Origin: an uncultured Acidobacteriota bacterium
GTDB lineage: Bacteria; Acidobacteriota; UBA6911; RPQK01; JAPXNP01
DNA: 34,248 nt
Assembly (NCBI GenBank): GCA_963777605.1
Contig: CAVZRV010000045.1
Location: 1-34,248, forward strand
Reading direction: 5' to 3'
The position numbers and the translations under genes are program-made. Below are positions 612-32,213 of the stretch, piece by piece. The notes beneath the pieces were generated by a model that saw nothing but the letters and a program-made list of their open reading frames with translations, ran no database searches and had not been told where the DNA came from. How positions within the stretch are numbered: the first letter of the stretch is position 1; each line of letters begins with the position of its first letter.

Positions 612-848
612 TTGGAAGCAGGGTCCGTTCTTTGTTAGCCGGAAGGCAACGACCCGGCCCGGATAGAAGCCCACCTTACCGACGACAGCCTGCAGCCCAT
701 CTTCGATCAAATTCAGACCGATCCCGAGGTTCGGTCTGCTGTGGAGAGCCGCTGTCAACCCGTCATTACATCGCTCCTGAAGGAACCGCTCTCGAAACTG
801 AGTGGAAAATAGCCGAGGCCGGTGAATCGCTCTTGTTTAATCCTTGTG

Positions 849-882
849 GAATATTGAATATTCAGCAAGTGATCACTAATAT
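849..882 (+). promoter_or_regulatory. Sigma70-like promoter (TTGAAT-N17-TAATAT) overlapped by a perfect 7-1-7 palindrome GAATATT-G-AATATTC
   Basis: -35 at 854-859, -10 at 877-882, palindrome at 849-863; AT-rich island ~80 bp upstream of the leader ORF. Confidence 0.55.
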
Positions 883-961: not shown

Positions 962-1297
962 ATGGTTTCAGCGATACGTCACTTTGTGCATGGGACTTTG
1001 CGGCGCCTCTCCCGGCGGCTGGTGAAGGTTCTCTCCATCCTTCTGGTTATCGTTTCAGCGGCTGTTCTACTCTCGGTTTCGTTTGCTGCAGCAGGCGATC
1101 TTCACCCAGGTGGGTTCGACAAGAACTGCAACCTCTGCCTTTTCAACAGGGCTCCGCTGATTCATGCCAGCCCCCCTGTGTTCATTCCCCCCAGCGAACT
1201 CGTCTCATGGGAAGTCCGGGTGGTTCCCGTCCTGTTCCGCCGGCAACAGGTCGTCTTCTCCGGACTTTGCCGCGCCCCTCCCGCCCCTCTCTCCTGA
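962..1297 (+). CDS. DUF2946-family (CruR/CutF-like) metal-sensing leader / ribosome-arrest peptide
   Basis: 111 aa: basic N-terminus, hydrophobic segment, H...CNLC (CxxC), Pro-rich linker and C-terminal RAPP; directly upstream of a TonB-dependent receptor. Confidence 0.85.
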   Translation: MVSAIRHFVHGTLRRLSRRLVKVLSILLVIVSAAVLLSVSFAAAGDLHPGGFDKNCNLCLFNRAPLIHASPPVFIPPSELVSWEVRVVPVLFRRQQVVFSGLCRAPPAPLS

Positions 1298-1363
1298 GAA
1301 GTTTCGGAGTCCGAGAACTTCGCGGATGACCTGTTGAATAACCCAAACAGGTTCTGAGGAGGG
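1289..1363 (+). promoter_or_regulatory. Anti-SD/SD pairing and two inner hairpins between the leader ORF and the receptor gene
   Basis: CTCTCCTGAGAA (1289-1300) can pair with TTCTGAGGAGGG (1352-1363, containing the SD) at 11/12 positions including one G-U; inner stems at 1298-1320 and 1329-1352. Confidence 0.55.
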
Positions 1364-1375
1364 TGTGACGTGCGT

Positions 1376-1694
1376 ATGAATCGAACCCAACGGGTTCTCC
1401 TTGGACGATTTTGCTTGCTGTGCTGTATCCAGCTGAATGTGCGAATGCCTCCCGGTGGGAACCGAAGAACCACACGGCTGGCGCCGGAACACGCGATCGG
1501 TCGATTACGACCCGCTGAATGAGATGTTGATGGAGGGAACTGTTGTAGCTGTTGAGATGGCAATTTCTGCCCGGCGCCAGCCCACTCGGTTCAACTGCTG
1601 CTTGAAACGGATGGGGGATTGATCCGGGTCCACCTGGGGCCGTTGAGTTTCCTTCAGGCTTGGGGAAGGAGATCGAAACGGTGACCGGGTTTCC
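1376..1694 (+). pseudogene. Frameshifted N-terminal part of the TonB receptor gene (signal-like start plus OB-fold, MamS/MamX-like module)
   Basis: SD GAGGAGG 1356-1362, then GTG 1370/ATG 1376. Segments YDPLNEMLMEGTVVAV, VQLLLETDGGLIRVHLGPLSFL and GDRVSVKGS alternate between two frames and continue into ORF 1695 (..LIAARL..IELRDARGVPVW). Confidence 0.6.
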
Positions 1695-4022
1695 GTGAAA
1701 GGATCCCTGGTCACCGTCGGAAAGGAGGATGTGCTGATAGCTGCCCGCCTCAGTTATAGTTCGAAGTCCATCGAACTCCGCGACGCGCGCGGGGTGCCGG
1801 TCTGGGCCGGCTGGCGAGCCAGCGGGGCCGAAGAGGGCTTGGGATGTGCCATCTTCGGGGCGGTCTGCGACACGTCTGGAGCGGGAGTCCCGGGGGCGGT
1901 CGTGGTGTTGGAGCCCAGTGCTCAAAGCGTCACAACCAACGAGGATGGAAGCTTCTGTTTTCCTCATCTCGATCCCCTGACGGCGGCTGTATCGGTGAGC
2001 GCTCTCGGCTTTGAAGAGCAGTGGACCGATTTGCGGGTGTCCAACCAGCCGGGAATGGAACTCAACCTGATCTTGTTTCCGGCCGTCATCGAGGAAACGG
2101 TGACGGTCACGGCGGCGACGCGTACCGTGAAGAGCCTCGAGGAGGTACCGGTTCGAACCGAAGTTGTTTTGCCGGAATTGATGGAGCTATCCGCCTCCCG
2201 GAACCTGGCCGATGCGGTGGAGTTCAGTCCCGGGATACGAGTCGAAAGCAACTGTCAGAACTGCAATTTCTCACAGATCCGGATGCTCGGGCTGCAGGGG
2301 CCTTACACCCAGATCCTGTTCGACGGTCAGCCGACGATGTCATCGCTGGCGCAGGTCTACGGAATCGAGCAGATCCCCTCCCGTATGGTGGAGAGGATTG
2401 AAGTCGTCAAGGGAGGGGGGTCGTCGATTTATGGACCAGGATCAGTTGGGGGCGTGGTGAACATCGTCTCTCACGTGCCGTTTCGAACCACAGGATACCT
2501 GCTCGCCCGCACTGGTTGGATGAACGGTGTCCCCAACCAGACCTTCAGTGCTTCGGCGGATTGGGCATCCTCGAATCGGGATAGTGCCGCAACGATTTTC
2601 GGACAGGGTGACAAGGTAAATCCGGTGGACGTTGACAGTGACGGGTTCACCGAGGTTTCAAAGCGGGATTTCAGGGCAATGGGCGGTCGATTCCGACAAA
2701 ACTTCCTCGATCAGAAAGGTGAATTGACGATTGACTTCAACCGGTTTCGGGAGGAACGCCGGGGGGGAGATAGACTGGACCTGCCGCCCGATCGAGCCTG
2801 CGTCGCAGAAGCGGTCGAGAGCACCCGTTCAGCCGGTGGTGTGAGCTGGCACCACACTCCGAGCGCCGCTTTTGACTACCGGTTGGCTTTTTCGGTTGCC
2901 CGAATGGATAGGGAAACGTATTACGGATCGGGGCAAGACCCGAATGCCTACGGGACCAGCCGGAATCCCCTGTGGGTTGTTGACTCCCAGTTCAATCATT
3001 TCCTCGGCTCGCACATTTTGTCGTGGGGAGGCCAAGTCACTTCAGACGGAGTCGAGGATGTTCAACCGGCGTACGAACGCTCTTATGATGAGACCTATCG
3101 GAATTTCGGTGGGTTCATCCAGGATGACTGGTTCCTCCTTCCGGGCCTGGAGTTGGTCTGGGGCGGCCGGATTGACAAGCACAGCGCGATCAAGGAACCG
3201 GTGTTCTCGCCTCGGTTGGCCCTGATGTGGACTGCAGCTTCCGATCTGCGCGTTCGGACGTCGGTTGCGACCGGCTTTCTGGCGCCCCGCGTGTTCGACG
3301 AAGACCTCCACATCACGGTTTCCGGAGGCGAAGCCCAGGTCATCCGCAACGCCGCCGATCTCAAGGAAGAGAGTTCGAAGACCCTGATGGCAGGTGTCGA
3401 GTGGAAGCCCCGTTCAGGAAGTGCAGGCGGCCTGGTGGAAGTTAACCTCTTCCAGACGACGCTGAAGAACCTCTTCAATGTCGTGGAGGACGACCTTCCC
3501 GAGACCGGGGAGGTGGAGTTCACTCGAATCAACTTTGGCAGGGCGAGAGTCTACGGTGCCGAGGTCAACCTGGGGTACGTGTTGAACCCTTCCATCGAAA
3601 TTCAGATTGGATACGTCGAACAGCGTTCGCGCTTTGAGAACCCGGAACCGGATTTCGGCAGCAAGGACTTCTTTCGCACCCCGAACCGCTATGGGCTGGC
3701 GACGCTGGTCTATCGCAACCCCCGCCTGGTCGACGTCTTTCTGGGGATGCGCTACACCGGTGAGATGAGCTTGCCCCACTATGCCGGCTGGATTGCCGAA
3801 GACCGTCTGGAAACCAGCCCTTCGAACTGGTCGCTGGACGCGAGCGTGTCCCGGTCATTTTCGATCGGTTCCGAAGCCGGCCTCACACTAACCCTCGGCG
3901 GCAAGAACCTGACAAATGCTTATCAGGACGACCTTGACCGTGGTCCTCAGCGCGATTCTGGCTATGTCTGGGGTCCAAGGTTTCCCATGACGCTCTATGT
4001 CGGCACGGCCGTGGAATTTTGA
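1695..4022 (+). CDS. TonB-dependent outer-membrane receptor with carboxypeptidase-regulatory-like domain and a CxxC-containing plug (true start probably 1370/1376)
   Basis: GAVCDTSGAGVPGAVVVL prealbumin-like domain; TonB box ETVTVTA; plug NCQNC...ERIEVVKGGGSSIYG; beta-barrel ending in a terminal Phe. Confidence 0.93.
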   Translation: MKGSLVTVGKEDVLIAARLSYSSKSIELRDARGVPVWAGWRASGAEEGLGCAIFGAVCDTSGAGVPGAVVVLEPSAQSVTTNEDGSFCFPHLDPLTAAVSVSALGFEEQWTDLRVSNQPGMELNLILFPAVIEETVTVTAATRTVKSLEEVPVRTEVVLPELMELSASRNLADAVEFSPGIRVESNCQNCNFSQIRMLGLQGPYTQILFDGQPTMSSLAQVYGIEQIPSRMVERIEVVKGGGSSIYGPGSVGGVVNIVSHVPFRTTGYLLARTGWMNGVPNQTFSASADWASSNRDSAATIFGQGDKVNPVDVDSDGFTEVSKRDFRAMGGRFRQNFLDQKGELTIDFNRFREERRGGDRLDLPPDRACVAEAVESTRSAGGVSWHHTPSAAFDYRLAFSVARMDRETYYGSGQDPNAYGTSRNPLWVVDSQFNHFLGSHILSWGGQVTSDGVEDVQPAYERSYDETYRNFGGFIQDDWFLLPGLELVWGGRIDKHSAIKEPVFSPRLALMWTAASDLRVRTSVATGFLAPRVFDEDLHITVSGGEAQVIRNAADLKEESSKTLMAGVEWKPRSGSAGGLVEVNLFQTTLKNLFNVVEDDLPETGEVEFTRINFGRARVYGAEVNLGYVLNPSIEIQIGYVEQRSRFENPEPDFGSKDFFRTPNRYGLATLVYRNPRLVDVFLGMRYTGEMSLPHYAGWIAEDRLETSPSNWSLDASVSRSFSIGSEAGLTLTLGGKNLTNAYQDDLDRGPQRDSGYVWGPRFPMTLYVGTAVEF

Positions 4023-4096: not shown

Positions 4097-5491
4097 ATGA
4101 AGAATTTGTTGATGTCAATTGCGGCTGTGCTGATATCGATGAGTTTGCTTGCGGCGCAAGAGCCGGATTCGGAGCATGCTCGGAAAACCCTCGAGATATA
4201 CAGGCACATTGTGGAGATTGAATCCTCCAAGGGGCTTGGCCGGGTGCCCGAGGTGGCGAACTACCTGGCCGACGAACTCGTTGCTGCGGGCTTTCCCAGG
4301 GAGGATGTGGAAGTGGTCCCGCTCGGCGAGACCGCAGCCCTGATCGCCCGCTATCGCGGAGACGGGTCCTCGGGGAAAAAGCCGATCCTCCTATTGGGCC
4401 ACATGGACGTTGTGGAGGCTCGCGCGGAGGACTGGGAGCGACCGCCGTTTCAACTGACCCGGGACGACAAGTACTTCTATGCCCGCGGGAGCATTGACTG
4501 CAAGTTTGGTGTTTCGCAGGTGACTTCCACTCTTATCCGTTTGAAGAAAGATGGGTTTGTTCCGACGCGGGATTTGATCATTGCATTCTCGGGCGATGAA
4601 GAGAGCGGAATGAAGACGACTCGGTTGCTCGCCCATGACAGGCCTGAGTTGGCCGACGCCGATTTCGCACTGAATTCGGATGCCGGCGGCGGCGACCTCA
4701 CTGCGGACGGAAAGCCGGTGGCTTACCTCGTGCAAGCTGCGGAAAAGACCTATGTCACCTGGGAGATCACGATCCGCAACCCGGGTGGACACAGTTCTCG
4801 CCCCAGGCCCGACAACGCCATTTACGACCTGGCGGATGCCGTCAAGAAGATCCATGACTACCGATTCCCGGTTCGATCGAGCGAGATGACCCGCACTTTC
4901 TTCCGGGAGACGGGGAAGCAGTTGGGCGGGGAACTGGGGGAAGCCATGATCCGGTTCGCCGACAACCCCCAGGACCAGAAGGCCGCGGACCGGTTGGCCG
5001 TGGAATCGTCCTACGTCGGGACCACACGGACGACCTGCGTCCCAACCATGCTGCGTGCCGGACATGCCGAAAATGCGTTGCCGCAATCTGCGACGGTCAC
5101 CGTCAACTGCCGCGTCTTTCCCGGCGTGCCGGTTTCCGAGGTTGAGGACACGCTCAAGCGGGTAGTCGGCAACAGCCAGGCTGAATTTATGCAACTCGGC
5201 GAGGTGACGGAGAGCCCAATATCGGAATTGCGGCCGGACGTTCTTGCCGCGGTCAGCAAAGCGGTGCACACCCGCTACCCCGACGTGAAAGTGATCCCAT
5301 ACATGGAGTCGGGAGGCACCGACGGGACCCACTTTCGAAATGCTGGAATCCCGACCTGGGGAGTCAGCAGCATCTTCATGAATCCGGACGAAGTGTTTGC
5401 GCACGGACTCAACGAAAGGGTTCCCATCAAGGCGTTCTACGATGCGCTCGACCACTGGAGCATCATTCTCAAGGACCTTGCCGGAGACTGA
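4097..5491 (+). CDS. Secreted M20/M25/M40-family metallopeptidase
   Basis: Signal peptide; GHMDVV, ARGSID, GDEE, GGHSS, GGTDG and AHGLNE motifs. Confidence 0.93.
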   Translation: MKNLLMSIAAVLISMSLLAAQEPDSEHARKTLEIYRHIVEIESSKGLGRVPEVANYLADELVAAGFPREDVEVVPLGETAALIARYRGDGSSGKKPILLLGHMDVVEARAEDWERPPFQLTRDDKYFYARGSIDCKFGVSQVTSTLIRLKKDGFVPTRDLIIAFSGDEESGMKTTRLLAHDRPELADADFALNSDAGGGDLTADGKPVAYLVQAAEKTYVTWEITIRNPGGHSSRPRPDNAIYDLADAVKKIHDYRFPVRSSEMTRTFFRETGKQLGGELGEAMIRFADNPQDQKAADRLAVESSYVGTTRTTCVPTMLRAGHAENALPQSATVTVNCRVFPGVPVSEVEDTLKRVVGNSQAEFMQLGEVTESPISELRPDVLAAVSKAVHTRYPDVKVIPYMESGGTDGTHFRNAGIPTWGVSSIFMNPDEVFAHGLNERVPIKAFYDALDHWSIILKDLAGD

Positions 5492-7268: not shown

Positions 7269-7305
7269 AGAGACTATGCACCAAAATGGCGGTAGGATTC
7301 ATACA

Positions 7306-7629
7306 ATGTCGAGGAAATCGCCGGAATTTTCGGAACAAGAGGTTGGGGCGGGATGGACCTATCTCACCAACCACGCCCACGTGCTCATTTACCTGGCCGG
7401 CCACCCTGGGGTTACCCTTCGTGAAGCCGCCGGCGCGGTTGGTATCACGGAACGGGCGGTCCTGAGAATCGTCGCAGAGTTGGAAGAGGATGGGGTTCTG
7501 AGGAGAGTCAAGCAAGGGCGCAGGAACGAATACGAGATCGATCTCGACCGTCGCCTGCGCCATCCCGTCGAGAATCACTGCAAGGTCGGAGAACTTCTCG
7601 ATTTGGTCGTGGGTACGTCGTCGGGTTGA
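7306..7629 (+). CDS. Small winged-helix (MarR/AsnC-like) transcriptional regulator
   Basis: WTYLTNHAHVL...VGITERAVLRIVAELEEDG...GRRNEY...LRHP; start at ATG 7306 (alternative 7276). Confidence 0.88.
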   Translation: MSRKSPEFSEQEVGAGWTYLTNHAHVLIYLAGHPGVTLREAAGAVGITERAVLRIVAELEEDGVLRRVKQGRRNEYEIDLDRRLRHPVENHCKVGELLDLVVGTSSG

Positions 7630-7635
7630 AATGCC

Positions 7636-7956
7636 ATCCTTGGAAGAACTGGAAGAACTGGAAGAACTGGAAGAACTGGATGATTTGGAGGAACTCGATG
7701 AACCGGCGCGGCCGGGGGCAGTGTAATCCAGGCAGCCGTGCCTGGTATGGTGTCCGGGCAGCTTGCCCGGCGATTTCCGGTTCCCAAAGGAGCTGCCGCC
7801 TACCGCGAAATTGAAACGCCAAGACGCGAAGATCGCAAAGGGCTTTATTGTCGAAAACAAGAGATTTCTTAGCGTCTTCCCTTCTTTGCGGTTCAAAACA
7901 CTCGTGGCAAGTTTCGCTGCCTGAATGATCCGCGGAAGGCGCGGGGGTGGGGCTGA
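7636..7956 (-). repeat. Dispersed hairpin-rich intergenic repeat, copy A
   Basis: Reverse complement is colinear with 29609-29897 (e.g. GAAACTTGCCACGAGTGTTTTGAACCGCAAAGA and AAGAAATCTCTTGTTTTC are identical). Confidence 0.92.
7641..7703 (+). repeat. 9-bp tandem repeat (TGGAAGAAC)x4 plus 3 degenerate units
   Basis: Exact units at 7641-7676, then TGGATGATT, TGGAGGAAC, TCGATGAAC. Confidence 0.95.
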
Positions 7957-8025: not shown

Positions 8026-9937
8026 CTACTGCCCGGAGTCAGCGCGCCCGGCTATGACCGGAAACGCCGTCAGGATCGGAACTTCGTTTGGATAGGGCAC
8101 CGCCCCGTCGTCGTTTTGTCGCAGCGTCAGCGCCGCTACGGCAACGTCGCTACCCACGGTGACGACGCCCTCCATCTCCTGTAACTGGCTGACGATGTCA
8201 ATCGAGGCTCCGCCCTCCTGGAAGATTTCCCAGATGAACTTTCCAATGGCCTGTCCCGGCTGCAGCGTCAACTGGACCTCACCGAGCTGATCTTGGAAGT
8301 CCTGGTCCCACACTCGGACCGTCAGGGTCGCGAGAGTTCCCGGGGTCGTGCTGTCACCGGCAGGATTGACGATCGCAAGTCCGGTGTCCTTGCCCGCCGT
8401 CGAGTCGAGCAGCACCGTGAAGTCCTGAATCGGGTGGGCCGCCGGCACGCCGGCCTCGGTCATGGTGATCCCGTTGTCGGCGCGACTGAACACCACGGTA
8501 CCGGTGATCGGCGAGGTCGTGTTATCGGCCTCGGGATCGGAGGAGCTTTTCACTTTGACCAGGGCATAGCCGACCTGGAGACCCTCTTCGGTGCCCGGAG
8601 TCTGCGCCGAGAAGACCCGCCCCCGGGTAAAGGTCAGGTCAAACGTAGAAGCGGGGCCGTTCTCACCCAACGTGACCGCCAGGGGATTGCCGGCACGGTC
8701 GTAGAACTCGACCACGGCATCCCGATCTTCTCCGACGCTGGCGAGCAGGAGGCTGCTCTTCAACTGGATTCCGGTCGACAGCCCGTCACCAAACAAGGGA
8801 AAGTAGAAGACATCGCTGAATTCGGGCTGTAGGTGCGCAACGTTGAACCCAAGCTTTGCCATGGTCTCCCGATCCAATGGTTCGGCATAGAACAGGTGCT
8901 GGTTGTCAACCGTGGACTTGAGGTAGGACCAGTCGGTGTTCTCCTGGAGGTTGTTCACGTCACCGTTGAACTGAGCGAAATCATAGCTGAGCGCGGTATC
9001 CCAGTCCTCCGGAATTGGAACTACGCCAGTCGGCCCGACGATTTTCTTGGTGTCCGGGTTCCATTTGGTCATGGTAATCGAACCGGTCGTGTTGTACTCC
9101 TGGATTGCCGCGTTCGTCCCGCCGAAGTTGTTGTGGCAATCCCCGCAGGTCGAGGCATTCTTCTGGATCGTGTGGGAGTGAAAAGAGGAGATGATGACGT
9201 TCGTCTTGCCATCGTAAGTGTGGGTCATGAAGTCGCCCAGTTTAACCTTGCCGTTCTTCTTCACCAGCATCTTGAAGTTCCAAAGCTGGTTGATGGCTCG
9301 GTTCTTTCCCGTGGCGATCAGAGTCTCGAAGTGACAACTCGCGCAGGCGACGCTTCCGACGGCGTGGCAGGCCGCGCAGTCTACCGTGTCGGCATGAATC
9401 ACGTGGGATTCATTCTGGGACAGGTCGATGTGGCAGCCTTCACACGACGCCTTGACCGCGCCGGGTTCCTTAAGAGCGGCGTAGTCAACACCATCGTCAC
9501 CGTGCAGTTCAGCCGCGGTGTGACAGGTCCAGCAGGTCATGCCAGCGTTCAGGTGCACATCCGCCATGGGATTGGTATCCGGGTTCCCGTAGCGGGCCCG
9601 TTCGTACACTTGCCGGCTGTGGCAGTTCAGACAGCTCTGCTCGACGACACTGAGATCGGCGGCATGGCAGTCCGAGCAGTTGGGCGTGTAGGTGGCGGGA
9701 TCGATATCATTTCCGGCCGCGTCCTTGCCGGTTCCCGAGTGGCATTTCCAGCAGGATAGATCCTGCATGGGAATGAATGTTCGTGATCAACTCCATACCG
9801 CCATTCTCTGCGGCGTAGGCAGTGAACTTGCCCTGCCTGGTCTTGTGCAGGCTGGTGTCAAAGTGCGCCTGGGCAAACATCAGTTCTGCACCGAACAGCG
9901 CAAGCAGCAGGGTCAGAAAGGTGACTCGAATCTTCAT
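8026..9937 (-). CDS. Secreted octaheme c-type cytochrome with a C-terminal non-heme beta-rich domain; frameshifted at 9771-9778
   Basis: SD AGGAGG + ATG 9937 + signal peptide (ORF 9707..9937) joins ORF 8026..9768 if one GAAT of GAATGAAT is removed (..ITNIPMQDLSCWKCH). Eight CxxCH: CWKCH, CSDCH, CLNCH, CWTCH, CEGCH, CAACH, CASCH, CGDCH. Confidence 0.9.
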
Positions 9938-9998: not shown

Positions 9999-10330
9999 CT
10001 GGGAAGGAATGTTCGACAAACCGATCAAATAGAAAGGCTTGCACCCGCTGAGTCTATCGCTCATTTATACATCGATCAATGTAGATTTTAAAAATAGTTG
10101 CATTTGGCGCCCACTTGGGTGTCAAGCTCTTTCGCGAACCGCGGTCGATGCGGATCATGCGCGATTTGCCGTGTCGAACAGCTGATTTTTCAAAAGCTCT
10201 GTGGGTGTGCCGGGATGATAGAGTATCTTCATCGCGGGTTTCCCGGCCGGCCGGGTATGGCCATCGGGAGGCTCAGGGAGTGGGTGCCGGACGTCGAGTC
10301 GGGCACTCGGTAGACCTGCCGGAGAGCGGG

Positions 10331-11680
10331 ATGAGTGGACGGAAGAAAAGCCCGATGGTGCTCCTGAACCCGACCGAAGCGATTCTTGAGAGCATCTCGG
10401 ACGGAGTCTTTACGGTCGGCCTGGATTGGTGTGTCACGTCGTTCAACCGGGCGGCTGAAGAAATCACGGGAGTACCGCGCGGCGAAGCGCTCGGCCGTCG
10501 CTGTTCCGAGGTTTTTCGATGCAGCATGTGCGGTACCGGGTGCGCGCTGGATCAGACGGTCAGGACGGGACGCCCGATCATTGGAAAGTCTGCCTTCATC
10601 ATTGACTCGAAAGGAAACCGCATCCCGATCAGCGTCTCAACCGCGGTGTTGAGGGACGCCGCCGGCCGCGTTATCGGCGGTGCGGAGACGTTTCGCGACC
10701 TTTCGGAAGTCGAGGCGTTGCGTCGGGAACTGGAAGGGCGGTCGCGAGTCGGTGATTTGACCAGCAACAGCTTGTTGATGAAGCGAGTCTTCGAAGTACT
10801 CCCGGCTATCGCTGCCAGTCCCAGCACGGTGCTGCTTCTGGGTGAAACAGGAACGGGAAAGGAACTGGTCGCGAGAACGATTCACTCCCTGAGTCCTCGC
10901 AATCGCGGTCCATTCGTGGCGTTGAACTGCGGAGCACTGCCCGATACCCTCCTGGAATCGGAGTTGTTCGGATATCGGGCGGGTGCCTTTACCGGAGCAA
11001 CGAAGGACAAGCCAGGCCGCTTCGCCCTGGCGAAGGGGGGGACAATCCTTCTCGATGAGATCGGCGAGATCAGCCCCGCACTCCAGGTCCGACTGCTTCG
11101 GGTTCTCCAGGAGCGGAAATACGAACCTCTCGGGGCGACCCGATCGGAGGTGGCCGACGTGCGGGTGATCGCCGCGACCAACCGGGACCTGGCGGAACAG
11201 GTCAGGTTAGGAGCTTTTCGGGAGGACCTCTACTACCGCATCAACGTGGTCCGCATCGAGCTCCCGCCCCTGCGACGCCGCAAGGAGGACATTCCTCTGC
11301 TAATTGAAGAGTTCGTCGCACGCTTTAATCGACTGCAGGGGAGGGCGGTCCCCGGCATCAGCCCCGAAGCATTGTCCCTGCTGATGGCTCACGACTGGCC
11401 GGGCAATATCCGCGAACTCGAAAACGTGATCGAACGTGCCTTCATACTCTGCGGAGACGATGAAATCCACATCCAGCACCTTCCCCTTGAGGTGACCGGG
11501 CGGGATGCCGCCGCGGGTTCCGCGGACGGTGACCTCAAGTCCGTCCACGACATCCTCGATGCACAAGCGATTACCGCCGCTCTGGAGCGCAACCAACAGA
11601 ACCGGACGGCGGCCGCGCGCGAACTCGGAATCCACAAGACCACCCTCTACCGCCGCATGAAGAAACTGGGGCTGACCTGA
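10331..11680 (+). CDS. PAS-domain sigma54-dependent activator, OrpR-like (copy 1)
   Basis: Start ATG 10331 after GGAGAG; PAS with CSEVFRCSMCGTGC (C-X8-C-X3-C); GETGTGKE, ESELFG, GAFTGA, LLDEIGE, WPGNIREL; Fis-type HTH. Confidence 0.95.
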   Translation: MSGRKKSPMVLLNPTEAILESISDGVFTVGLDWCVTSFNRAAEEITGVPRGEALGRRCSEVFRCSMCGTGCALDQTVRTGRPIIGKSAFIIDSKGNRIPISVSTAVLRDAAGRVIGGAETFRDLSEVEALRRELEGRSRVGDLTSNSLLMKRVFEVLPAIAASPSTVLLLGETGTGKELVARTIHSLSPRNRGPFVALNCGALPDTLLESELFGYRAGAFTGATKDKPGRFALAKGGTILLDEIGEISPALQVRLLRVLQERKYEPLGATRSEVADVRVIAATNRDLAEQVRLGAFREDLYYRINVVRIELPPLRRRKEDIPLLIEEFVARFNRLQGRAVPGISPEALSLLMAHDWPGNIRELENVIERAFILCGDDEIHIQHLPLEVTGRDAAAGSADGDLKSVHDILDAQAITAALERNQQNRTAAARELGIHKTTLYRRMKKLGLT

Positions 11681-12099: not shown

Positions 12100-12180
12100 A
12101 AGTGTGGACTGTTCCGGAACTGATCGGTTAACCCCTTTCTTTTCTGCCCATTCAGATGGAGCGGGCGGTCTGCTGTCCAT

Positions 12181-12196
12181 TGGCCCCATCCTTGCT
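12181..12196 (+). promoter_or_regulatory. Sigma54 (-24/-12) promoter P1 of the ORP-like operon
   Basis: TGGCCCCATCCTTGCT = TGGC-N7-TTGCW with exact GG-N10-GC spacing. Confidence 0.8.
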
Positions 12197-12209
12197 TATT
12201 CAAGATGCC

Positions 12210-12620
12210 GTGAGCAATGGAAGACGATCCCGGACGGCATTTTCCCACTTGGACAGCCGGATTGCGCCAGTTTTTGATACCGCCTCCGAGCTCCGAGTCT
12301 GCGAGTTCGCAGATGGCCAGTTGGTCAATGAGACGCGGGAGACGATTTTAGAGGACTTGCCGATCCAGAAGGTGTTGCGGCTTGCCGAGTTGGGGGTGGA
12401 GACCCTTGTGTGCGGGGCGATTTCTCGACCGCTCGAGGGGCTGATTACCGCTTACGGGATCAAGGTCGTTCCGTTTCTGGCGGGTGAGTTGCAGGAAGTT
12501 GTTGACGCGTGGCAGTCCCCAATGTTCAGCCGAAGGGCGTTCATGATGCCCGGGTTGTGGACGCCGCGGCATCGGGCGCCGCGGCGACGGCATGCGAAAG
12601 GAGAGACCGATGAATGGTAG
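12210..12620 (+). CDS. NifB/NifX-family (COG1433) Fe-Mo cluster-binding protein; probably fused to the next ORF
   Basis: RIAPVFD, LVCGAIS, FLAGELQEV, FMMPG. The ORF start 12156 lies upstream of the promoter, so GTG 12210 is preferred. Removing one G at 12552-12554 gives MPGCGRRG.. in frame with 12592..12816. Confidence 0.85.
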   Translation: MSNGRRSRTAFSHLDSRIAPVFDTASELRVCEFADGQLVNETRETILEDLPIQKVLRLAELGVETLVCGAISRPLEGLITAYGIKVVPFLAGELQEVVDAWQSPMFSRRAFMMPGLWTPRHRAPRRRHAKGETDEW

Positions 12621-12816
12621 AGGACGTGGATCGGGAGGCTCGGGTCGTGGCCAGGGCGGCGGCCGAGGCGGGCGGATGGGCGGTCCGCTGCGAGCCGGCC
12701 CGACCGGAAACTGTGTCTGTCCCAAGTGCGGGCATGTGGAATCCCACGAGCGGGGGATTCCCTGCGTCGAGCGGACCTGCCCGCAGTGCGGGACGACCAT
12801 GACGAGACAGTCTTGA
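12610..12816 (+). CDS. Gly/Arg-rich, Cys-rich small metal-binding domain (CxCxxC...CxxxxCxxC)
   Basis: GRMGGPLRAGPTGNCVCPKCGH..HERGIPCVERTCPQCG; own SD AAGGAG, or the C-terminus of the preceding NifX-like protein. Confidence 0.8.
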   Translation: MNGRGRGSGGSGRGQGGGRGGRMGGPLRAGPTGNCVCPKCGHVESHERGIPCVERTCPQCGTTMTRQS

Positions 12817-12840
12817 AGACTGGGCAAGGAGGAAATTGAA

Positions 12841-13218
12841 ATGCCAAGAGGAGATCGAACTGGACCCCGTGGATGGGGTGCGATGACAGGTCGGGCAGCC
12901 GGCTTCTGCTCGGGTTACGAGGTTCCGGGCTATGCCAACCAGGGGGCGGGCCGAGGATTGAGAATGGGACGTGGATTCCGAGGTGGAAATCGGGGTTCGC
13001 TCGCCCGGGGGTTGTCCGCCGTTTCACCCGGCGGTCGCTGGGGACGGGCTGGCGTGGACCCTAACGGCGGCCCAGCCTACGCGGCGGATGCGGAACCCAG
13101 AGTTGAGCGGCGGGTGCTCAGGCAGCAGGCCAAGGCGCTGCAAGCGGAACTCGATGCCGTCAACAAACGGCTGGAGGAACTCAAGCAGCCCGACGGGACC
13201 AAATCGGCCGGAGATTGA
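12841..13218 (+). CDS. DUF5320-family protein
   Basis: MPRGDRTGPxGxGAMTGRAAGFC N-terminus, RG-rich middle, coiled-coil C-terminus; SD AAGGAGG. Confidence 0.9.
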   Translation: MPRGDRTGPRGWGAMTGRAAGFCSGYEVPGYANQGAGRGLRMGRGFRGGNRGSLARGLSAVSPGGRWGRAGVDPNGGPAYAADAEPRVERRVLRQQAKALQAELDAVNKRLEELKQPDGTKSAGD

Positions 13219-13303
13219 TTGTCAAAAGAGCCGGTAGCCCGCAGGACATCGACTTTTTTCAGAGGGAGGACTTGTGGGCTCCGGCGGAAAGGGAGAACAC
13301 TCC

Positions 13304-13666
13304 ATGAAGATCATCTTCACAACCTCGGGATGGGGAGAAGAGGCCCCTCTCGACCCGCGCTTTGGGCGGGCGGCGGGATTTCTCCTCTACGATTCAGACG
13401 ACCGCTCATTTCAGCCGATTGACAACATCGAGGGGGCCGATTCAGGGCTGGGTGCCGGGATTCAGGCGGCAGAAAGGGTGGCGAAAGCAGGGGCGGACGT
13501 TGTGGTGACGGGACACTGTGGACCGAAGGCGTTTCGGGTGCTGCATGCTGCCGGTGTCAAGGTGTTCAATACCGAAGCGGCCACTGTAGCAGACGCGCTC
13601 GACCTTTTTCGGGCCGGGCGATTGGTAGAGGCAACGGAACCGGACGTGGATGGGCACTGGTCATGA
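13304..13666 (+). CDS. Orange-protein-like NifB/NifX-family (COG1433) protein
   Basis: DPRFGRA, GAGIQAA, TGHCGPKAF, C-terminal DVDGHW; start ATG 13304 after GGGAG. Confidence 0.92.
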   Translation: MKIIFTTSGWGEEAPLDPRFGRAAGFLLYDSDDRSFQPIDNIEGADSGLGAGIQAAERVAKAGADVVVTGHCGPKAFRVLHAAGVKVFNTEAATVADALDLFRAGRLVEATEPDVDGHWS

Positions 13667-14166
13667 TGGTGGAGCCGGTCTCTTACACTCCGATCGGGTT
13701 CCTCCACAGCAGCCATCAAGCTGCTGAAGAAACGCCGATTCAACCGGCGTATGCCCCAGACTGTGAAGGGCGACTCGTGGTCTTTCCCGAGTATGTCGAA
13801 GGTCTCCGGGACCTCGACGGATTCTCCCACATGTACCTGATCTACCACTTCCACAGGGCGCAACCGGTCAAGTTGATTGTGAAACCGTTCCTGCAAAACG
13901 TGGAACACGGAGTATTTTCGACCCGGGCCCCTGTCAGGCCCAACCCGATCGGGTTGAGCATCGTTCGGTTGGTGCGAATCGAGGGCAACATCTTGCACTT
14001 GCGGGGTGTCGACATCCTTGACGGTACCCCCGTTCTCGACATCAAGCCCTACACCGACAAGTTCGACCACGTCAAGACGTTGCAAAACGGCTGGCAGGAT
14101 GACGTGGACGGAGCGACGGCCCAGGTGAGGGGGCGGAGGAAGTTTCGAGGTGGAGGAACCTCATGA
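13663..14166 (+). CDS. tsaA: TrmO/TsaA-family SAM-binding protein (tRNA m6t6A37 methyltransferase family)
   Basis: PIG, GLRDLDGFSH, GVFSTRAPVRPNPIGLS, DILDGTPVLDIKPY; ATGA overlap with the upstream gene. Confidence 0.92.
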   Translation: MMVEPVSYTPIGFLHSSHQAAEETPIQPAYAPDCEGRLVVFPEYVEGLRDLDGFSHMYLIYHFHRAQPVKLIVKPFLQNVEHGVFSTRAPVRPNPIGLSIVRLVRIEGNILHLRGVDILDGTPVLDIKPYTDKFDHVKTLQNGWQDDVDGATAQVRGRRKFRGGGTS

Positions 14167-15047
14167 TCCTGGCGGTTGCATCGGGAAAAGGAGGAACCGG
14201 GAAGACCACGGTGTCGGTCAATCTTGCTCGGGTTTGGGGATCACCGGTCCAGTTGCTCGATTGTGACGTCGAGGAACCGAACGATCACTTGTTCCTTCCC
14301 GGCTTGCCGCAGAGTGAGGAAGAAGTCTCCATTCCCTTTCCGCGGGTGGATACTTCGCTCTGCGACGGCTGTGGAGAGTGTTCCCGTTTCTGCCGGTTCA
14401 ACGCGATCATTTGCCTGGGGAACCGCCCCTTGGTCTTTCCTGAGCTATGCCACGGGTGCGGCGGATGCGCGATGGTCTGTCCCCGGGAGGCAATCGACGA
14501 GGTCGCCCGGCGCATCGGGGTCGTCTCGACAAAGCGAGCAGGCGACATCACTCTCATCCAGGGCCTTCTCGACGTCGGCGTAGCGATGGCCCCGCCACTG
14601 ATTCGGGCGGTGCGGGCACGACGAAACAAGTTCTCATCCGCCATTTTGGATGCTCCACCCGGCACAACCTGTCCCGTGATCGCCGCGGTGCGGGATGCGG
14701 ATTACCTCTTGTTGGTCACAGAGCCGACCCCGTTTGGGCTGCATGACCTGGAGTTGGCTGTCGAAATGGTCCGGGTTCTGGGACTCCGGTTTGGGGTCGT
14801 GATCAACCGGGTCGGAATCAGTGACGATCGGATTCGCGAATTTTGTTTTACACAGGGAATCCGGATACTCGCAGAGATTCCGGATGACCGGAGGGTCGCG
14901 GAAATCTCATCGAAAGGAGCGCTGATCGTCGATCACTTGCCGGAGTACCGCGCACTCTTTCAGCGCCTGGCTGAAGAGGTTCTCCTGGAGGAGAAGGGTT
15001 CTCCCAGCTCTGTCCGGAGGATCCGGACTGCAATGCAAAGGCAATGA
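14163..15047 (+). CDS. MinD/ParA-like P-loop ATPase with inserted 2x[4Fe-4S] ferredoxin domain (COG1149), copy 1
   Basis: SGKGGTGKTT, DCDVEEPN, CDGCGEC..C, CHGCGGC..CP, DAPPGTTCP, VTEPTPFG. Confidence 0.94.
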   Translation: MILAVASGKGGTGKTTVSVNLARVWGSPVQLLDCDVEEPNDHLFLPGLPQSEEEVSIPFPRVDTSLCDGCGECSRFCRFNAIICLGNRPLVFPELCHGCGGCAMVCPREAIDEVARRIGVVSTKRAGDITLIQGLLDVGVAMAPPLIRAVRARRNKFSSAILDAPPGTTCPVIAAVRDADYLLLVTEPTPFGLHDLELAVEMVRVLGLRFGVVINRVGISDDRIREFCFTQGIRILAEIPDDRRVAEISSKGALIVDHLPEYRALFQRLAEEVLLEEKGSPSSVRRIRTAMQRQ

Positions 15048-15076
15048 CTGCGCCAGGGCTCCTTGGGGGTAAAACG

Positions 15077-16051
15077 ATGGAACCAACCGATATTCGAGTT
15101 ACCTTTGGACCCGTTCCGTCGCGGAGGCTGGGTCGCAGTGTCGGGATCAACAACATCCCGGCGAAGCTCTGCTCCTATTCGTGTGTGTACTGCCAGGTGG
15201 GCCGGACCAGCCGGCTGCAGAGTGACCGCGCGCCTTTCTATCGGCCGGAAGCCCTCCTGAGCGATGTTCAGTCCCGGATAGTAGAAGCCGGTTCGGCCAA
15301 GATGCCGATTGACTACCTGACATTTGTTCCTGACGGTGAGCCGACACTGGATGTCAACCTGGGAGAGGCGATCCGGCTGGTTCGGGAAGTCGGGATCCCG
15401 GTCGCCGTGATCACCAATGGATCCATGATGGCGAGGAGGGATGTTCGAGAGGATCTTGCCGAGGCCGACTGGGTGTCGCTGAAAATCGACACCGTCCGGG
15501 AAGACGAGTGGAGAAGGATCAATCGGCCTCACCGCTCTCTCAGCCTCTCCGCAATCCTCGAGGGCATGCTGGAATTCTCTGAATCCCACACCGGGACCCT
15601 GGCGACGGAAACCATGATCGTCGACGGGATCAATGACGGCCCGCAGAGTGTTGCTGAAGTTGCCGACTTTCTCTGGAAGTTGGTCCCCGATGAGGCGTAC
15701 TTGACTGTTCCCACTCGACCTCCCGCCGAATCGTGGGTTCGGGGTCCGGATGAGAGCACTCTTGTGAGGGTTTACCAGCAGTTTTCCGCGTGTGTCGAGC
15801 GAGTAGAGCATCTCACCGGGTACGAAGGGAACACCTTTGCTGCGACAGGCGATCCCGAAAGCGATTTGTTGGGTATCACGGCTGTCCACCCGATAAGATC
15901 CGAGGCCGCCGAAATCTTCCTGGCGGAGGCCGGAGCCGATTGGTCGCTGGTGGACCGCCTCGTGGCACGGGGAGATCTCGTGGAAGCGGAATACGGGGGG
16001 CACAGGTTTCTCCTCCGAACCTTCATCAGGCAGGGGAGAACTTCGCCGTGA
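15077..16051 (+). CDS. Radical SAM protein (COG0731, wyosine-synthase-like family)
   Basis: FGPVPSRRLGRS, CSYSCVYC (CxxxCxxC), DGEPTL, ITNGS, PTRPPAE; start ATG 15077. Confidence 0.92.
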   Translation: MEPTDIRVTFGPVPSRRLGRSVGINNIPAKLCSYSCVYCQVGRTSRLQSDRAPFYRPEALLSDVQSRIVEAGSAKMPIDYLTFVPDGEPTLDVNLGEAIRLVREVGIPVAVITNGSMMARRDVREDLAEADWVSLKIDTVREDEWRRINRPHRSLSLSAILEGMLEFSESHTGTLATETMIVDGINDGPQSVAEVADFLWKLVPDEAYLTVPTRPPAESWVRGPDESTLVRVYQQFSACVERVEHLTGYEGNTFAATGDPESDLLGITAVHPIRSEAAEIFLAEAGADWSLVDRLVARGDLVEAEYGGHRFLLRTFIRQGRTSP

Positions 16052-16169
16052 CGAGGAGGAGAGTCACGCTGCTTCGCGTGGGAGTGAGTGGGCGGCTTGT
16101 CGAGAGGACTGAGAGCCCGTCACCTGGATCGTCTGAATTCCAGGTTCCGGGAGAGAGCAGGTTGAAGTC

Positions 16170-17051
16170 ATGAGAGAACTCGTTGTCATCAGTGGGAAGG
16201 GTGGAACGGGAAAGACCAGCCTCACCGCTTCCTTCGCAGTGCTGGGCGGCCGGCCTGTCCTCGCCGATTGTGACGTGGATGCCTCGGACCTGCACTTGCT
16301 CCTCTCTCCCCGGGTGATGGAACGCCATCGATTCATCAGCGGGCACGAGGCGTCGATCCGGCAGAAGGACTGTCTTGGTTGCGGCGTCTGTGCCACCAAT
16401 TGTCGTTTTAATGCCGTGAAAGTGAGTGGTAGGCCCCCCGGGACTGTCCGATACTCGATCGATCCGACCGCCTGTGAAGGGTGTGGAGTCTGTGTGCGTT
16501 TCTGTATTGCCGATGCGATCGATTTTCCCGAGCGGGACTGTGGAGAGTGGATGATCTCGGACACGCGCTGCGGGCCAATGGTTCACGCGCAACTTGGCGT
16601 CGCGGCAGAGAACTCGGGGAAGTTGGTCACGGGGATTCGCCGAGAGGCACACCGGATCGCCCGGGAGGAGGGACGCTCTTTGGTGATCGTGGACGGTCCT
16701 CCCGGAATCGGCTGTCCGGTCATCGCTTCGCTGACCGGCGCCACCCAGGTACTTGCGGTCACGGAGCCGACGGTGTCGGGGCGGCACGATCTTGAGAGGT
16801 TGCTCTCGCTCACGCGGTACTTTGAGATTCCGACTTCCGTGTGCGTCAATAAGTGGGATATCAACCCCGAACTCGCAGACCAGATCGAAGAGGAAGCCCG
16901 TCGGCGGGGGGCCTCGGTCTCAGGACGCGTTCGTTATGACCCGGAAGTGACGCGGGCGCAAACCCGGGAGCAGGCGATCGTCGAGACGGCGGCCCCTTCT
17001 GCCGCGGATGTCGAGCGGGTCTGGCGGCAGCTTGGATTGCAGGAGAACTGA
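16170..17051 (+). CDS. MinD/ParA-like P-loop ATPase with 2x[4Fe-4S] domain (COG1149), copy 2
   Basis: SGKGGTGKTS, DCDVDA, CLGCGVC..C, CEGCGVC..C, ENSGKLV, DGPPGIGCP, VTEPT. Confidence 0.94.
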   Translation: MRELVVISGKGGTGKTSLTASFAVLGGRPVLADCDVDASDLHLLLSPRVMERHRFISGHEASIRQKDCLGCGVCATNCRFNAVKVSGRPPGTVRYSIDPTACEGCGVCVRFCIADAIDFPERDCGEWMISDTRCGPMVHAQLGVAAENSGKLVTGIRREAHRIAREEGRSLVIVDGPPGIGCPVIASLTGATQVLAVTEPTVSGRHDLERLLSLTRYFEIPTSVCVNKWDINPELADQIEEEARRRGASVSGRVRYDPEVTRAQTREQAIVETAAPSAADVERVWRQLGLQEN

Positions 17052-17459
17052 ATGAGGACAGATTCCAACACCTCTCACTCGGGATGCCTGCTTTGCGGGG
17101 ACCACAACCCACGCTCTCTCGGGCTTCATTTTGAATCGGACGGAAATGGAGGGGTCAGGGCGGGTTTCAAGGCGGAGCGAAATCTGCAGGGGTACGAGGG
17201 CATCCTCCACGGGGGAGTGATTGCAGCCCTCCTTGATGCCGGGATGACCCACTGCCTCTTTCAGCATCGAGTCGAAGCGCTCACGGGGGACCTTCATGTT
17301 CGATTTCTTCACCAGGTAAACTGCGGCGAAGCGTTGCAGATCCGAGCCTGGATCCTCTCCGGCAACCCTCCTCTGTTCCTTCTCAAATCGGAGTTGACGG
17401 CGGGGGATCGGGTGCTGGCCTGGGCTGAAGCCAAGTTCGTGGCTCGCCGAAGCGTCTAG
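17052..17459 (+). CDS. PaaI-family hotdog thioesterase
   Basis: CLLCG..NP..LGL N-terminus; QGYEGILHGGVIAALLD. Confidence 0.9.
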   Translation: MRTDSNTSHSGCLLCGDHNPRSLGLHFESDGNGGVRAGFKAERNLQGYEGILHGGVIAALLDAGMTHCLFQHRVEALTGDLHVRFLHQVNCGEALQIRAWILSGNPPLFLLKSELTAGDRVLAWAEAKFVARRSV

Positions 17460-18814: not shown

Positions 18815-19026
18815 GCTCAGCAAAGTCCTTTTCCGGGGATGCTCGGCGTGCAGGCAATCCCGGTGGAGATGCGGGTTCGGTCCCCCAGCGGTAGATCCTT
18901 GCGAAAGAACCGGGTGGCCGGATCCGCTCAGGACACTAGTATATACGCCGATCCTCGACAGTAGCCCGAGACATCTGATCGCAAGTCGGAGAATTGTTGA
19001 CTTTGCCAGTCGAGCCGGAGATGCGC

Positions 19027-19066
19027 GCAGATTGCGGCATCGGGCTCGGTGATCATTGCAAAATGC
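19027..19066. promoter_or_regulatory. Tandem GCA-N3-TGC enhancer-like sites, 31 bp apart
   Basis: GCAGATTGC 19027-19035 and GCAAAATGC 19058-19066; CATTGCAAAATGC recurs exactly at 23803-23815. Confidence 0.55.
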
Positions 19067-19157
19067 GTCGGTCTGCGTTTGGATCGGGCCTTGGTGCGGG
19101 TGTGATCCGGCTGAGCGAATCAGTGGGGATGAGTCTTTCGGTGTTCCAACCAGGCGT

Positions 19158-19173
19158 TGGAAACAAACATGCT
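19158..19173 (+). promoter_or_regulatory. Sigma54 promoter P2 (upstream of the NTP-transferase operon)
   Basis: TGGAAACAAACATGCT, GG-N10-GC, about 93 bp downstream of the tandem sites. Confidence 0.5.
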
Positions 19174-19348
19174 TCCAAAAGCCAGCGAGGGTATTCCCGG
19201 TCGGGTTTGAATGCTCAGCTTTGACTTTCTCACCGTTACGGGTCCCGGAAGACGAACAATTCGAGCATGGGGTTAGGCAATGGTCCGAGTTCCCGTTCAA
19301 TATCGATTGCCGACCACCTGCTCCACATCAATCAGGAGAACGGTTGCT

Positions 19349-21310: not shown

Positions 21311-21786
21311 AGATACTGTTAGCCGTAGACGGATCGCTTTGCAGTGATGCCGCAATTACCGAGGTTGCCACTCGACCCTGGCCCATCGGGAGTTCAGTGG
21401 TGATTCTCTACGTTGTCCACGCCCGCGTGCCACAGATCCCAGATCCGTTCTTCTCGCTTTACGCCGCCCATGAGCAGTTCCTGGAGGAAGAGCAGGAATC
21501 CGGGCAAAGGCGGGTCGTAAATGCGGCGGAGCGAATCAGGAAGAATCCCACGATCGACTTTGTAGACGTCGAGACGATTGAAGGATCTCCCAAAAAGTCG
21601 ATCCTCAAGGAGGCTGGGAGGATTGCCGCAGACCTGGTGGTGCTTGGAAGTCACGGCTATGGCGCCATCGGCCGAATCGTGCGAGGATCGGTCTCCCAGG
21701 CCGTTCTCTCTGAAGCCCACTGTACTGTAGAAGTAATCCGTTCACCGCAGGGACCCGTCCTTTCCGCGTCGAGGCCATGCAATTAG
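21307..21786 (+). CDS. Universal stress protein
   Basis: KILLAVDGS; DLVVLGSHG..GSVSQAV..AHCTVEVIR. Confidence 0.95.
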   Translation: MKILLAVDGSLCSDAAITEVATRPWPIGSSVVILYVVHARVPQIPDPFFSLYAAHEQFLEEEQESGQRRVVNAAERIRKNPTIDFVDVETIEGSPKKSILKEAGRIAADLVVLGSHGYGAIGRIVRGSVSQAVLSEAHCTVEVIRSPQGPVLSASRPCN

Positions 21787-32090: not shown

Positions 32091-32213
32091 TTCAGGTCAG
32101 CTTGCCCAGTGACCACCAGGAGACTCCGCCGCCCAGACTTGCCATGGAAGCTCCCTCCGGACTATCTTGGGCACGCTGTTTATTGCCAATCCCACTCCAC
32201 GAGAGAGGTCTGC

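Follow-up and report, generated by a model that had tools for sequence, protein, structure and literature searches.

Does the small open reading frame (ORF) just ahead of a TonB-dependent receptor gene in an uncultured Acidobacteriota bacterium encode an arrest peptide that controls the receptor in cis, and by which output would it do so? We addressed this question for a leader ORF near the start of contig CAVZRV010000045.1, of which we analyzed a stretch of 34,248 nucleotides (nt), referred to here as the window. A preliminary description of this DNA had proposed a complete switch in which the 3' end of the leader masks the receptor gene's Shine-Dalgarno (SD) sequence, a ribosome stalled at a RAPP motif uncovers it, and metal binding to an exported CxxC motif releases the stall. 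We find that the leader ORF is a real gene, and it is probably a divergent member of the already described CruR/CutF class of copper-responsive leader peptides, acting in cis on the receptor.

The leader ORF extends from an ATG at 962 to a TGA at 1295-1297 and comprises 111 codons, with two other same-strand open frames overlapping it (946-1329 and 1164-1337). Its first 22 residues contain six K/R and zero D/E and lead into a hydrophobic run at residues 23-41, which, judged by hydropathy alone, is predicted to be a signal peptide or an N-in anchor. The run is followed by SFAAAG-DLHPGGFDKNCNLC, which contains an SFAAAG/DLHP junction of the form AAA(G/A)-DLHP. A CNLC motif occupies residues 56-59 (nt 1127-1138), and the RAPP motif is followed by four residues, APLS, and the stop codon. 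The 111-amino-acid (aa) ORF, the signal-like helix, the CNLC, and the RAPP at 1271-1282 four residues before the stop had all been listed in the preliminary description, and all are present in the sequence. In the toeprint of CruR, the third and fourth RAPP codons were in the P and A sites of the ribosome (PMC12992588, in the part on which we draw); by analogy, a ribosome stalled in the leader is expected to have Pro106 (1277-1279) at its P site, and the A site would be occupied by Pro107 (1280-1282).

Homologues indicated which of these elements are conserved. Among 5.8 billion proteins, a word-indexed search identified four close homologues of the same length class (46-95% identity), including P0001, which is 95% identical to the leader over its full length, and a HMMER scan of 1.84 billion cluster representatives with a leader profile returned 22 proteins at E<=0.001. 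In the leader family alignment of 25 sequences, H48, C56, C59, R104, and P106 were invariant (25/25), and A43, D46, L58, and P107 were nearly so. The stretch between CxxC and the arrest motif was poorly conserved in sequence, and yet the spacing between CxxC and R(A/G/S)PP was 44 residues in 23 of the 25 sequences, the window leader among them, and 45 in the other two. The arrest-type motif was RAPP in 19 members, RSPP in three, RGPP in two, and RAPA in one, with 1-13 residues following it; according to the relevant part of PMC12992588, RAPP and RGPP support arrest in several contexts and RSPP is partially permissive. A hydrophobic segment preceded CxxC in 24 of the 25 members, and the 25th was N-terminally truncated. 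Retention of a 44-residue ruler despite variable sequence favors the view that what is functionally conserved is the geometry with respect to the ribosome tunnel or the translocon.

We scanned for related loci in two ways. Patterns from the five closest leader sequences matched 156 stretches, none of which coded for a relative, and the genome of the window is therefore absent from the GTDB representatives. Patterns from an 11-sequence alignment gave five matches that resolved into two loci, L001 and L002. Both are in Acidobacteriota metagenome-assembled genomes, in agreement with the acidobacterial host guessed in the preliminary description. In each of them, a leader ending in ...SRAPPSLTPFSV(V) is separated by a 75-nt spacer from an intact receptor gene, whose 887-aa product has a signal peptide. 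L001 and L002 are near-identical, so that together with the window they represent effectively two lineages for any comparison. In all three loci, the leader sits 72-78 nt before the same receptor on the same strand, and the leader-spacer-receptor layout is thus conserved; the genes downstream of the receptor differ, encoding an M20 peptidase in the window, a TlpA-like thioredoxin in L002, and PadR in L001. The peptidase gene is a possible operon member in the window, but it is not conserved in L001 and L002.

These findings bear on whether the leader might be a chance open frame in GC-rich DNA or, alternatively, a stable periplasmic metallochaperone with no regulatory role. Overlapping frames such as 946-1329 and 1164-1337 are common here, no Pfam family matched the leader at threshold, and CutF was first proposed as a copper chaperone. 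Nevertheless, the five invariant residues (H, C, C, R, and P) of a protein conserved down to ~27% identity, together with a fixed spacer length, the arrest motif, and the hydrophobic segment, indicate that the leader is not a chance frame, and its constant position before the same receptor in three loci also argues against this alternative, which we consider very improbable.

The architecture of the family resembles that of published leader peptides. CruR (Bp2923), a DUF2946 protein of Bordetella pertussis (Roy et al. 2022), combines a CXXC motif with RAPP three residues from the C terminus. Within the CruR family, 45 residues separate CXXC from RAPP, conserved within one or two, and an export signal is found in >95% of members; the gene is the first of its operon and is followed, after a long intergenic region, by a TonB-dependent transporter or another copper homeostasis gene (all as given in the parts of PMC9426467 consulted here). 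The leader displays the CruR hallmarks, namely a CXXC, a RAPP near the C terminus, a 44-residue spacing, and a predicted export segment. It also passes all four filters used for CutF-like proteins in the relevant part of PMC9973294: a length of <150 aa (111 aa), PP in the last 15 residues (residues 106-107), a signal peptide (the hydrophobic N-terminal segment), and a same-strand neighbor within 1000 nt (a spacer of 72-78 nt). The proposal that a conserved CxxC/RAPP leader of the CruR/CutF type precedes the TonB receptor is therefore borne out by the family conservation, with a spacing of 44 fitting the CruR ruler of 45.

The domain searches weigh against this class assignment. The Pfam DUF2946 model (PF11162) scored the leader at 15.9 bits (E 0.023), below the gathering cutoff of 23.7, so that by Pfam's rule the leader is not a PF11162 member; the subthreshold match aligned leader residues 48-107 with profile positions 56-117. 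Across the leader family, only 10 of the 25 sequences matched PF11162 at E<=1 (best E 0.0036), and a precomputed Pfam domain was present in none of the 12 matches of a further leader profile search. The comparison with NCBIfam gave zero matches for the leader. The preliminary description had likened the leader to DUF2946 upstream ORFs and named a hidden Markov model search with PF11162 as a check; the score does not carry an assignment to that family, but the fit to the published CruR/CutF hallmarks stands. A language-model look-alike search, which provides a lead and not a test, returned clusters named "DUF2946 domain-containing protein" that were commonest in Acidobacteriota and Verrucomicrobiota, and one look-alike cluster had PF11162 on 13% of its members.

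A second set of observations that weighs against a working switch concerns the receptor gene, which as sequenced is not translatable from its SD-linked start. The start codon ATG 1376 aligns with the ATG of the L001 and L002 receptors, and GTG 1370 is also a possible start, but the frame from GTG 1370 ends after 50 codons at a stop at 1520-1522. The frame of the receptor start codon differs from the frame at 1476, and the long receptor ORF from GTG 1695 lies in a different frame and is without a signal peptide; the signal peptide present in the L001 and L002 receptors is in the window out of frame with the gene body. Two intact homologues, P0005 (the receptor of L002, 887 aa) and P0006, which has 869 aa, carry an N-terminal extension annotated as PF26390 (MamS_MamX), which tblastn and frameshift-aware alignment mapped to 1476-1694 of the window with frame changes near 1578 and 1664-1679. 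The shifted segments had 60/140 and 64/140 aligned residues identical (43-46%) with zero internal stops. DNA alignment with the intact homologues placed single-base gaps near 1398, 1445, 1585, 1659, and 1681, and over both kinds of alignment the last three fall at 1578-1585, 1659-1664, and 1679-1681, so that the disruptions number at least three and probably five, all of them deletions relative to L001 and L002 and all within ~300 nt. The switch is thus not complete in the window as had been proposed: the AGGAGGG of the receptor gene is present, but the SD and start at 1358-1376 do not open the receptor ORF as sequenced.

The broken 5' end is either a local assembly or consensus error or the mark of a dead gene, in which case it would be a very recent pseudogene. 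If the locus were a decaying relic, with the receptor a pseudogene and the intact leader regulating nothing any more, the frame changes in 1376-1694 and the early end of the start-linked frame would be accounted for, and a split transposase gene (30252-31825) provides an example of another broken gene within the window. Nevertheless, the receptor gene reads through over its other 2.3 kb, which has Pfam matches to Plug (E 9e-21) and barrel (E 3.4e-32), and apart from that transposase the further genes with Pfam support in the window are likewise uninterrupted. The persistence of identity without internal stops in the shifted segments and the full-length match of the leader to P0001 also speak against decay. 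Since the gaps are all deletions and cluster in ~300 nt, we favor a local consensus fault over slow, neutral decay, and a relic appears unlikely to us. Two other explanations of the 5' region were rejected. A second small gene at 1370-1522 (50 codons) was discarded because this stretch aligns with the N terminus of the intact receptors, and programmed frameshifting was dropped because the shift sites are too many (at least three, about five) and have no slippery-site pattern.

The receptor also has an unusual extension, in that a MamS/MamX-type domain (window 1476-1790 and L002 6505-6885, from the precomputed PF26390 annotation and Atlas look-alikes) lies ahead of the CarboxypepD_reg and plug domains. 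Sequence matches of the L002 MamS/MamX-like domain in the PDB were to designed armadillo-repeat proteins or had E>1 only, and we regarded them as spurious. Among the matches listed for the receptor in NCBIfam (25 of 32), all were far below the curated cutoffs, so that a substrate is not assignable from them.

From the ORF, its motifs, conservation, spacing, and synteny, together with the pairing potential of the leader end and the C-rich tract described below, we infer an arrest, metal sensing, a response direction, and a coupling to the receptor as follows. The leader would be translated, and its N-terminal hydrophobic segment would engage the export machinery. The ribosome would arrest at R104-A-P-P107, with Pro106 and Pro107 in the P and A sites, respectively, as in CruR. 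H48/C56xxC59 would then lie 47-58 residues from the peptidyl-transferase center, just beyond the exit tunnel, with the strictly kept 44-residue spacer serving as a ruler. The stalled ribosome would cover ~1265-1292, which includes the best partner of the SD and part of a C>G, rut-like region, and the receptor would be ON. Metal at the H/CxxC site would then release the arrest, so that the leader is completed, the tract is bared, and receptor expression falls. Lost receptor translation would also expose the RNA to Rho, and both outputs could therefore act together.

A stall-ON logic of this kind is likely, but two points temper it. The polarity of CutF is opposite to that of CruR, which counts against the direction assumed here. 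In addition, the CruR signal peptide was reported to be dispensable in the part of PMC9426467 on which we rely, which leaves binding of the metal to an exported CxxC as an assumption. Under a CutF-type polarity, metal would induce or prolong the stall and turn the receptor ON, for example in a detoxification or sequestration response. CutF, from the same broad family, stalls on periplasmic copper and needs its signal peptide; the leader likewise has a strong export segment, with H/CxxC directly after the predicted cleavage region, and a short spacer as in CutF-like loci. However, CxxC rather than CxxxC, RAPP rather than PPP, a spacing of 44-45 residues, and a TonB-dependent transporter downstream form the CruR set, in which copper relieves the stall. 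TonB-dependent uptake receptors are normally repressed by their cargo, which also does not fit a receptor induced by its metal. We consider a CutF-type polarity improbable and retain stall-ON, with release by metal, as the preferred direction.

How a stall would be coupled to the receptor can be asked of the RNA. In the characterized RAPP/TonB case, that of CruR, a rut site within a C>G leader region is concealed by the stalled ribosome, and copper-triggered release leads to Rho-dependent termination (PMC9426467, as far as the part used here goes); the SD masking put forward in the preliminary description is thus not the coupling of that case. In its distal half, the leader is rich in C and poor in G, with C/G exceeding the background 95th percentile of 1.80, and L002 6223-6342 has a C/G of 2-3. 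This C-rich tract is conserved between the two lineages, whereas the SD helix is not. Against Rho as the output, C-richness follows partly from the Pro/Ala/Ser-rich composition of the peptide, and the spacer, at 72-78 nt, falls far short of the 162 bp between cruR and bfrG, where Rho is in control. A plausible conserved output is nonetheless Rho-dependent polarity of the CruR kind, although we would not put it at even odds; it is slightly more likely than SD unmasking. The two outputs are not mutually exclusive.

The case for SD unmasking begins with the fold of the region. The pairing of 1289-1300 with 1352-1363, described previously as 11/12, does exist (10 Watson-Crick pairs, one G-U pair, and one mismatch; duplex of -15.1 kcal/mol), but it is a minor register that received a probability (P) of only 0.07-0.12 in the ensemble. 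The fold of 1265-1385 (121 nt) reached -42 kcal/mol with a z of -2.97, and 0 of 200 shuffles were as good. When 120 nt of upstream sequence was included in the ensemble, the core of the SD (1358-1363) paired at P 0.83-0.86 with 1276-1281, a stretch made up of the final base of the Ala codon, the whole Pro106 codon, and two bases from that of Pro107, and 1365-1372 paired with 1270-1275. Both SD-pairing registers lie within the stalled-ribosome footprint of ~1265-1292 expected from CruR, as does the leader side of the whole helix 1270-1282/1358-1372, making an SD-unmasking model physically coherent. When RNA 3' of the footprint was folded alone (1293-1385), the SD was largely open, and the 72-78-nt spacer is in the range where the relevant part of PMC9973294 expects unfolding of stem-loops by a stalled ribosome. 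In L002, the second Pro codon and one base pair with the AAGG of the SD (4 bp, CCUU/AAGG) at P 0.36-0.47.

The controls, in contrast, weigh against a dedicated SD-sequestering helix. Synonymous recodings of the peptide tail paired with the SD at least as well as the native sequence in 35% of samples for the window, 28% for L002, and 60% for L001 (3000 samples per locus, those of the window drawn from window codon usage), and 9.3% of 4856 other 39-nt windows of the sequence paired at least as well with the SD region. The L002 pairing is weak, and in L001 the leader end is not used, the SD pairing instead with a local UUCUC at P<=0.46; neither the L002 nor the L001 fold was better than shuffles (z -0.77 and -0.60, respectively). 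The refolding with the footprint blocked, which had been named as a check, did not clearly free the SD: with upstream RNA present, P(unpaired) of the SD rose only from 0.13 to 0.17, and the SD moved to a C-tract at 1171-1177. When RNA 3' of the ribosome alone was folded and 35 nt of receptor coding sequence was added to it, the SD paired with 1395-1402 at P up to 1.0. Covariation of the helix across homologous loci is a measure that does not properly apply to two lineages, and the sequences that exist do not support the helix. We also observed that CU-rich tracts at 1395-1402 and 1446-1453 in the receptor coding region can pair with the gene's own SD, at P up to 1.0 in local folds. A G-rich SD in a GC-rich genome has many potential partners, and an SD helix is expected here because RAPPAP needs C-rich codons and faces an SD rich in G. 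When a Pro-rich C terminus pairs with the SD, this thus follows from composition, and a synonymous-codon control is needed before such a pairing is called a switch.

The strict form of the model, in which coupling is translational only and SecM/CutF-type wiring serves CruR-type logic, accordingly draws on the fold, the pairing probability, the footprint, and the spacer, but it is opposed by the failed random-window and recoding controls, by the minor weight of the register on which it was built, by re-pairing of the SD when the footprint is blocked, by the related loci, and by the dispensable signal peptide of CruR (PMC9426467, with the restriction noted above). We regard it as tentative and on balance doubtful. 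SD unmasking might be the main output of the leader, a reading to which we give about the same limited credence; otherwise, it would be a local reinforcement in the genome of the window. A further elaboration would have the RAPP codons double as the anti-SD, so that the arrested ribosome occupies the sole strong partner of the receptor ribosome-binding site, a CruR-type sensor acting through translation in the manner of SecM/CutF and not through Rho, and the invariant His beside CxxC, just after the signal peptide, tuning the site to a non-copper metal that is the cargo of the MamS/MamX-domain receptor. We offer this combination as speculative, with odds well against it. For separating Rho from ribosome-binding-site unmasking, the window, with a strong helix between the SD and the RAPP codons, and L001 and L002, with a weak one or none, provide a natural pair.

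We also analyzed the RNA and DNA elements around the leader. Two hairpins occupy the spacer, and hairpins after the leader stop at the matching position had -18.4 kcal/mol (z -4.7) in L002 and -16.0 kcal/mol (z -3.7) in L001. The spacer hairpins are not intrinsic terminators because no U-tract follows them. A promoter and terminator scan of 600-1800 found zero promoter-like sites and one terminator-like site, at 1627-1641 within the receptor coding region, which is no more than shuffles give. Upstream, an AT-rich inverted repeat has a perfect 7-1-7 core, GAATATT-G-AATATTC, at 849-863, ~95-120 nt before the leader ATG; the core is unique in the window (chance expectation of 0.35 matches at <=3 mismatches). 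L001 has an AT-rich inverted repeat with 15-nt arms, TGTTATTGAAAATGA / TCAATTGCAATAACA, at 625-657, within ~100-140 nt upstream of its leader ATG, and a search for such a repeat upstream of the L002 leader found none. We take the repeats of the window and L001 to resemble operators of a Fur-family or similar metalloregulator, and the repeat in the window is a possible operator of a metal-responsive repressor. The coordinates of these and the preceding elements are listed in Table 1.

Table 1. Elements of the leader-receptor locus, with positions in the window and the basis of each assignment
Element	Position	Strand	Basis
AT-rich inverted repeat, CTTGTGGAATATT / AATATTCAGCAAG	843-869		13-nt arms, 1-nt gap, 85% complementary
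Leader ORF, probable CruR/CutF-like (DUF2946-like) arrest-peptide leader	962-1297	+	ORF list, homologues, 25-sequence alignment
Predicted hydrophobic export segment, residues 23-41	1028-1084	+	Kyte-Doolittle 19-residue mean 2.75
Putative metal-binding motif, H48-x7-C56-N-L-C59	1103-1138	+	H48, C56, and C59 invariant in 25/25
C-rich, G-poor distal leader half; candidate Rho-utilization tract	1127-1306	+	C/G >=2 at 1127-1216 and 1232-1306
Anti-SD-capable tract: major register 1270-1282, minor register 1284-1292, register of the preliminary description 1289-1300	1270-1300	+	Folding
RAPP arrest motif (putative), residues 104-107	1271-1282	+	Sequence and family conservation
Intergenic hairpin 1, directly after the leader stop	1298-1321	+	-10.2 kcal/mol, z -1.45
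Intergenic hairpin 2	1328-1353	+	-9.1 kcal/mol, z -3.25
Shine-Dalgarno AGGAGGG of the receptor gene	1357-1363	+	AGGAG invariant in three loci
Receptor 5' part: signal peptide and MamS/MamX-like domain, over three frames	1376-1694	+	Homologue alignments
Receptor remainder, intact: CarboxypepD_reg, Plug, and beta-barrel; 775 codons from GTG 1695	1695-4022	+	ORF list, Pfam
M20/M28 peptidase gene, 74 nt after the receptor stop	4097-5491	+	ORF list, Pfam

The remainder of the window contains genes of varied types. No Rfam family reached gathering scores, and no tRNAs were found, over the whole window. Low-complexity repeats at 7511-7896, comprising a poly-Ser run on the minus strand and short tandem repeats of the WKN/FFQ type in overlapping frames, adjoin a small MarR/HTH_24 regulator gene (7270-7626, plus strand), and a gene for a cytochrome c7-like multiheme protein lies at 8029-9786 (minus strand). 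The region 12132-17048 encodes two Nitro_FeMo-Co (NifX/NifB-like) proteins, a DUF5320 protein, a TrmO_N protein, a pair of P-loop proteins that are CbiA/MinD-like and carry 4Fe-4S domains, and a radical SAM protein, and it is flanked by genes for two PAS/sigma-54 activators (10085-11677, plus strand; 17459-19327, minus strand); this cluster may be a metallocluster or redox maturation module. Other genes encode an ArsP_2 permease that has 10 transmembrane segments and resembles heavy-metal exporters (21714-22607, plus strand) beside a Usp protein, an alkaline phosphatase (24407-25939, minus strand), a PIN-domain protein (26289-26765, minus strand), and a gamma-glutamyltranspeptidase (32088-33917, plus strand). 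The split transposase of the insertion sequence (IS) type at 30252-31825 (minus strand) has DUF772 and the N-terminal DDE_Tnp_1 in 30737-31825 and the C-terminal DDE_Tnp_1_6 in 30252-30758, and the overlap of these ORFs suggests a frameshift.

Considering the locus against known systems, the closest likeness is to CruR. As in CruR, a small first gene of a putative operon with an N-terminal export signal is followed by a TonB-dependent receptor, CXXC is separated by 44-45 residues from a RAPP that ends 3-4 residues before the C terminus, and the leader contains a C>G tract. The differences are several. The leader has 111 aa compared to 145 aa in CruR, its PF11162 score is below threshold, and in its family a His located eight residues before CxxC is invariant. 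The receptor follows after 72-78 nt here versus 162 bp in B. pertussis, the host belongs to Acidobacteriota rather than Betaproteobacteria, and the receptor in the window has MamS/MamX-like and CarboxypepD_reg N-terminal domains. The copper response and Rho dependence are experimental findings in CruR and would be predictions for the leader in the window.

The likeness to Rhodobacter capsulatus CutF (Ozturk et al. 2023, PMC9973294; preprint 10.1101/2025.02.05.636593) consists of the four filters, a short spacer with stem-loops, and a potentially maskable SD. Unlike the leader, CutF has CxxxC and PPP, regulates a multicopper oxidase, and has its stall induced by copper. The anti-SD of CutF is in an intergenic stem-loop, whereas the best anti-SD of the leader is formed by the RAPP codons within the ORF and is without statistical support. 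SecM and the Apd-type peptides ApdA and ApdP resemble the leader in their C-terminal R-A-P-P/R-A-G-P core, N-terminal localization signal, and cis-controlled downstream gene (PMC10987492 and PMC12992588, in the parts consulted). These peptides report on the Sec/YidC machinery, and it is a pulling force that releases them; in the leader, by contrast, the conserved H/CxxC points to a metal as the ligand, with a receptor as the target.

The preliminary description had noted that characterized cases are proteobacterial, which is dated. A 2025 survey of 52,895 GTDB genomes reported RAPP/RGPP upstream ORFs before TonB receptors "universally" in Gram-negative bacteria, and thus across Gram-negative phyla (PMC12992588, in the part on which we draw), and the locus fits this surveyed class, since its small leader protein has a signal sequence and carries the motif close to the C terminus, and a TonB receptor lies downstream. 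The string "Acidobacter" has zero occurrences in the main texts of PMC9426467, PMC9973294, and PMC10987492 and one in PMC12992588, in a legend on motif avoidance. The class is therefore already known, and the leader is a new and divergent entry within the CruR/CutF class; mildly new are the His that never varies, a ruler of exactly 44 residues in a subfamily that scores below the Pfam threshold, and a MamS/MamX-domain receptor as target. These findings extend the principle of CruR and CutF, in which a nascent leader senses metal and reports via arrest, to a divergent, mostly acidobacterial subfamily missed by the DUF2946 model.

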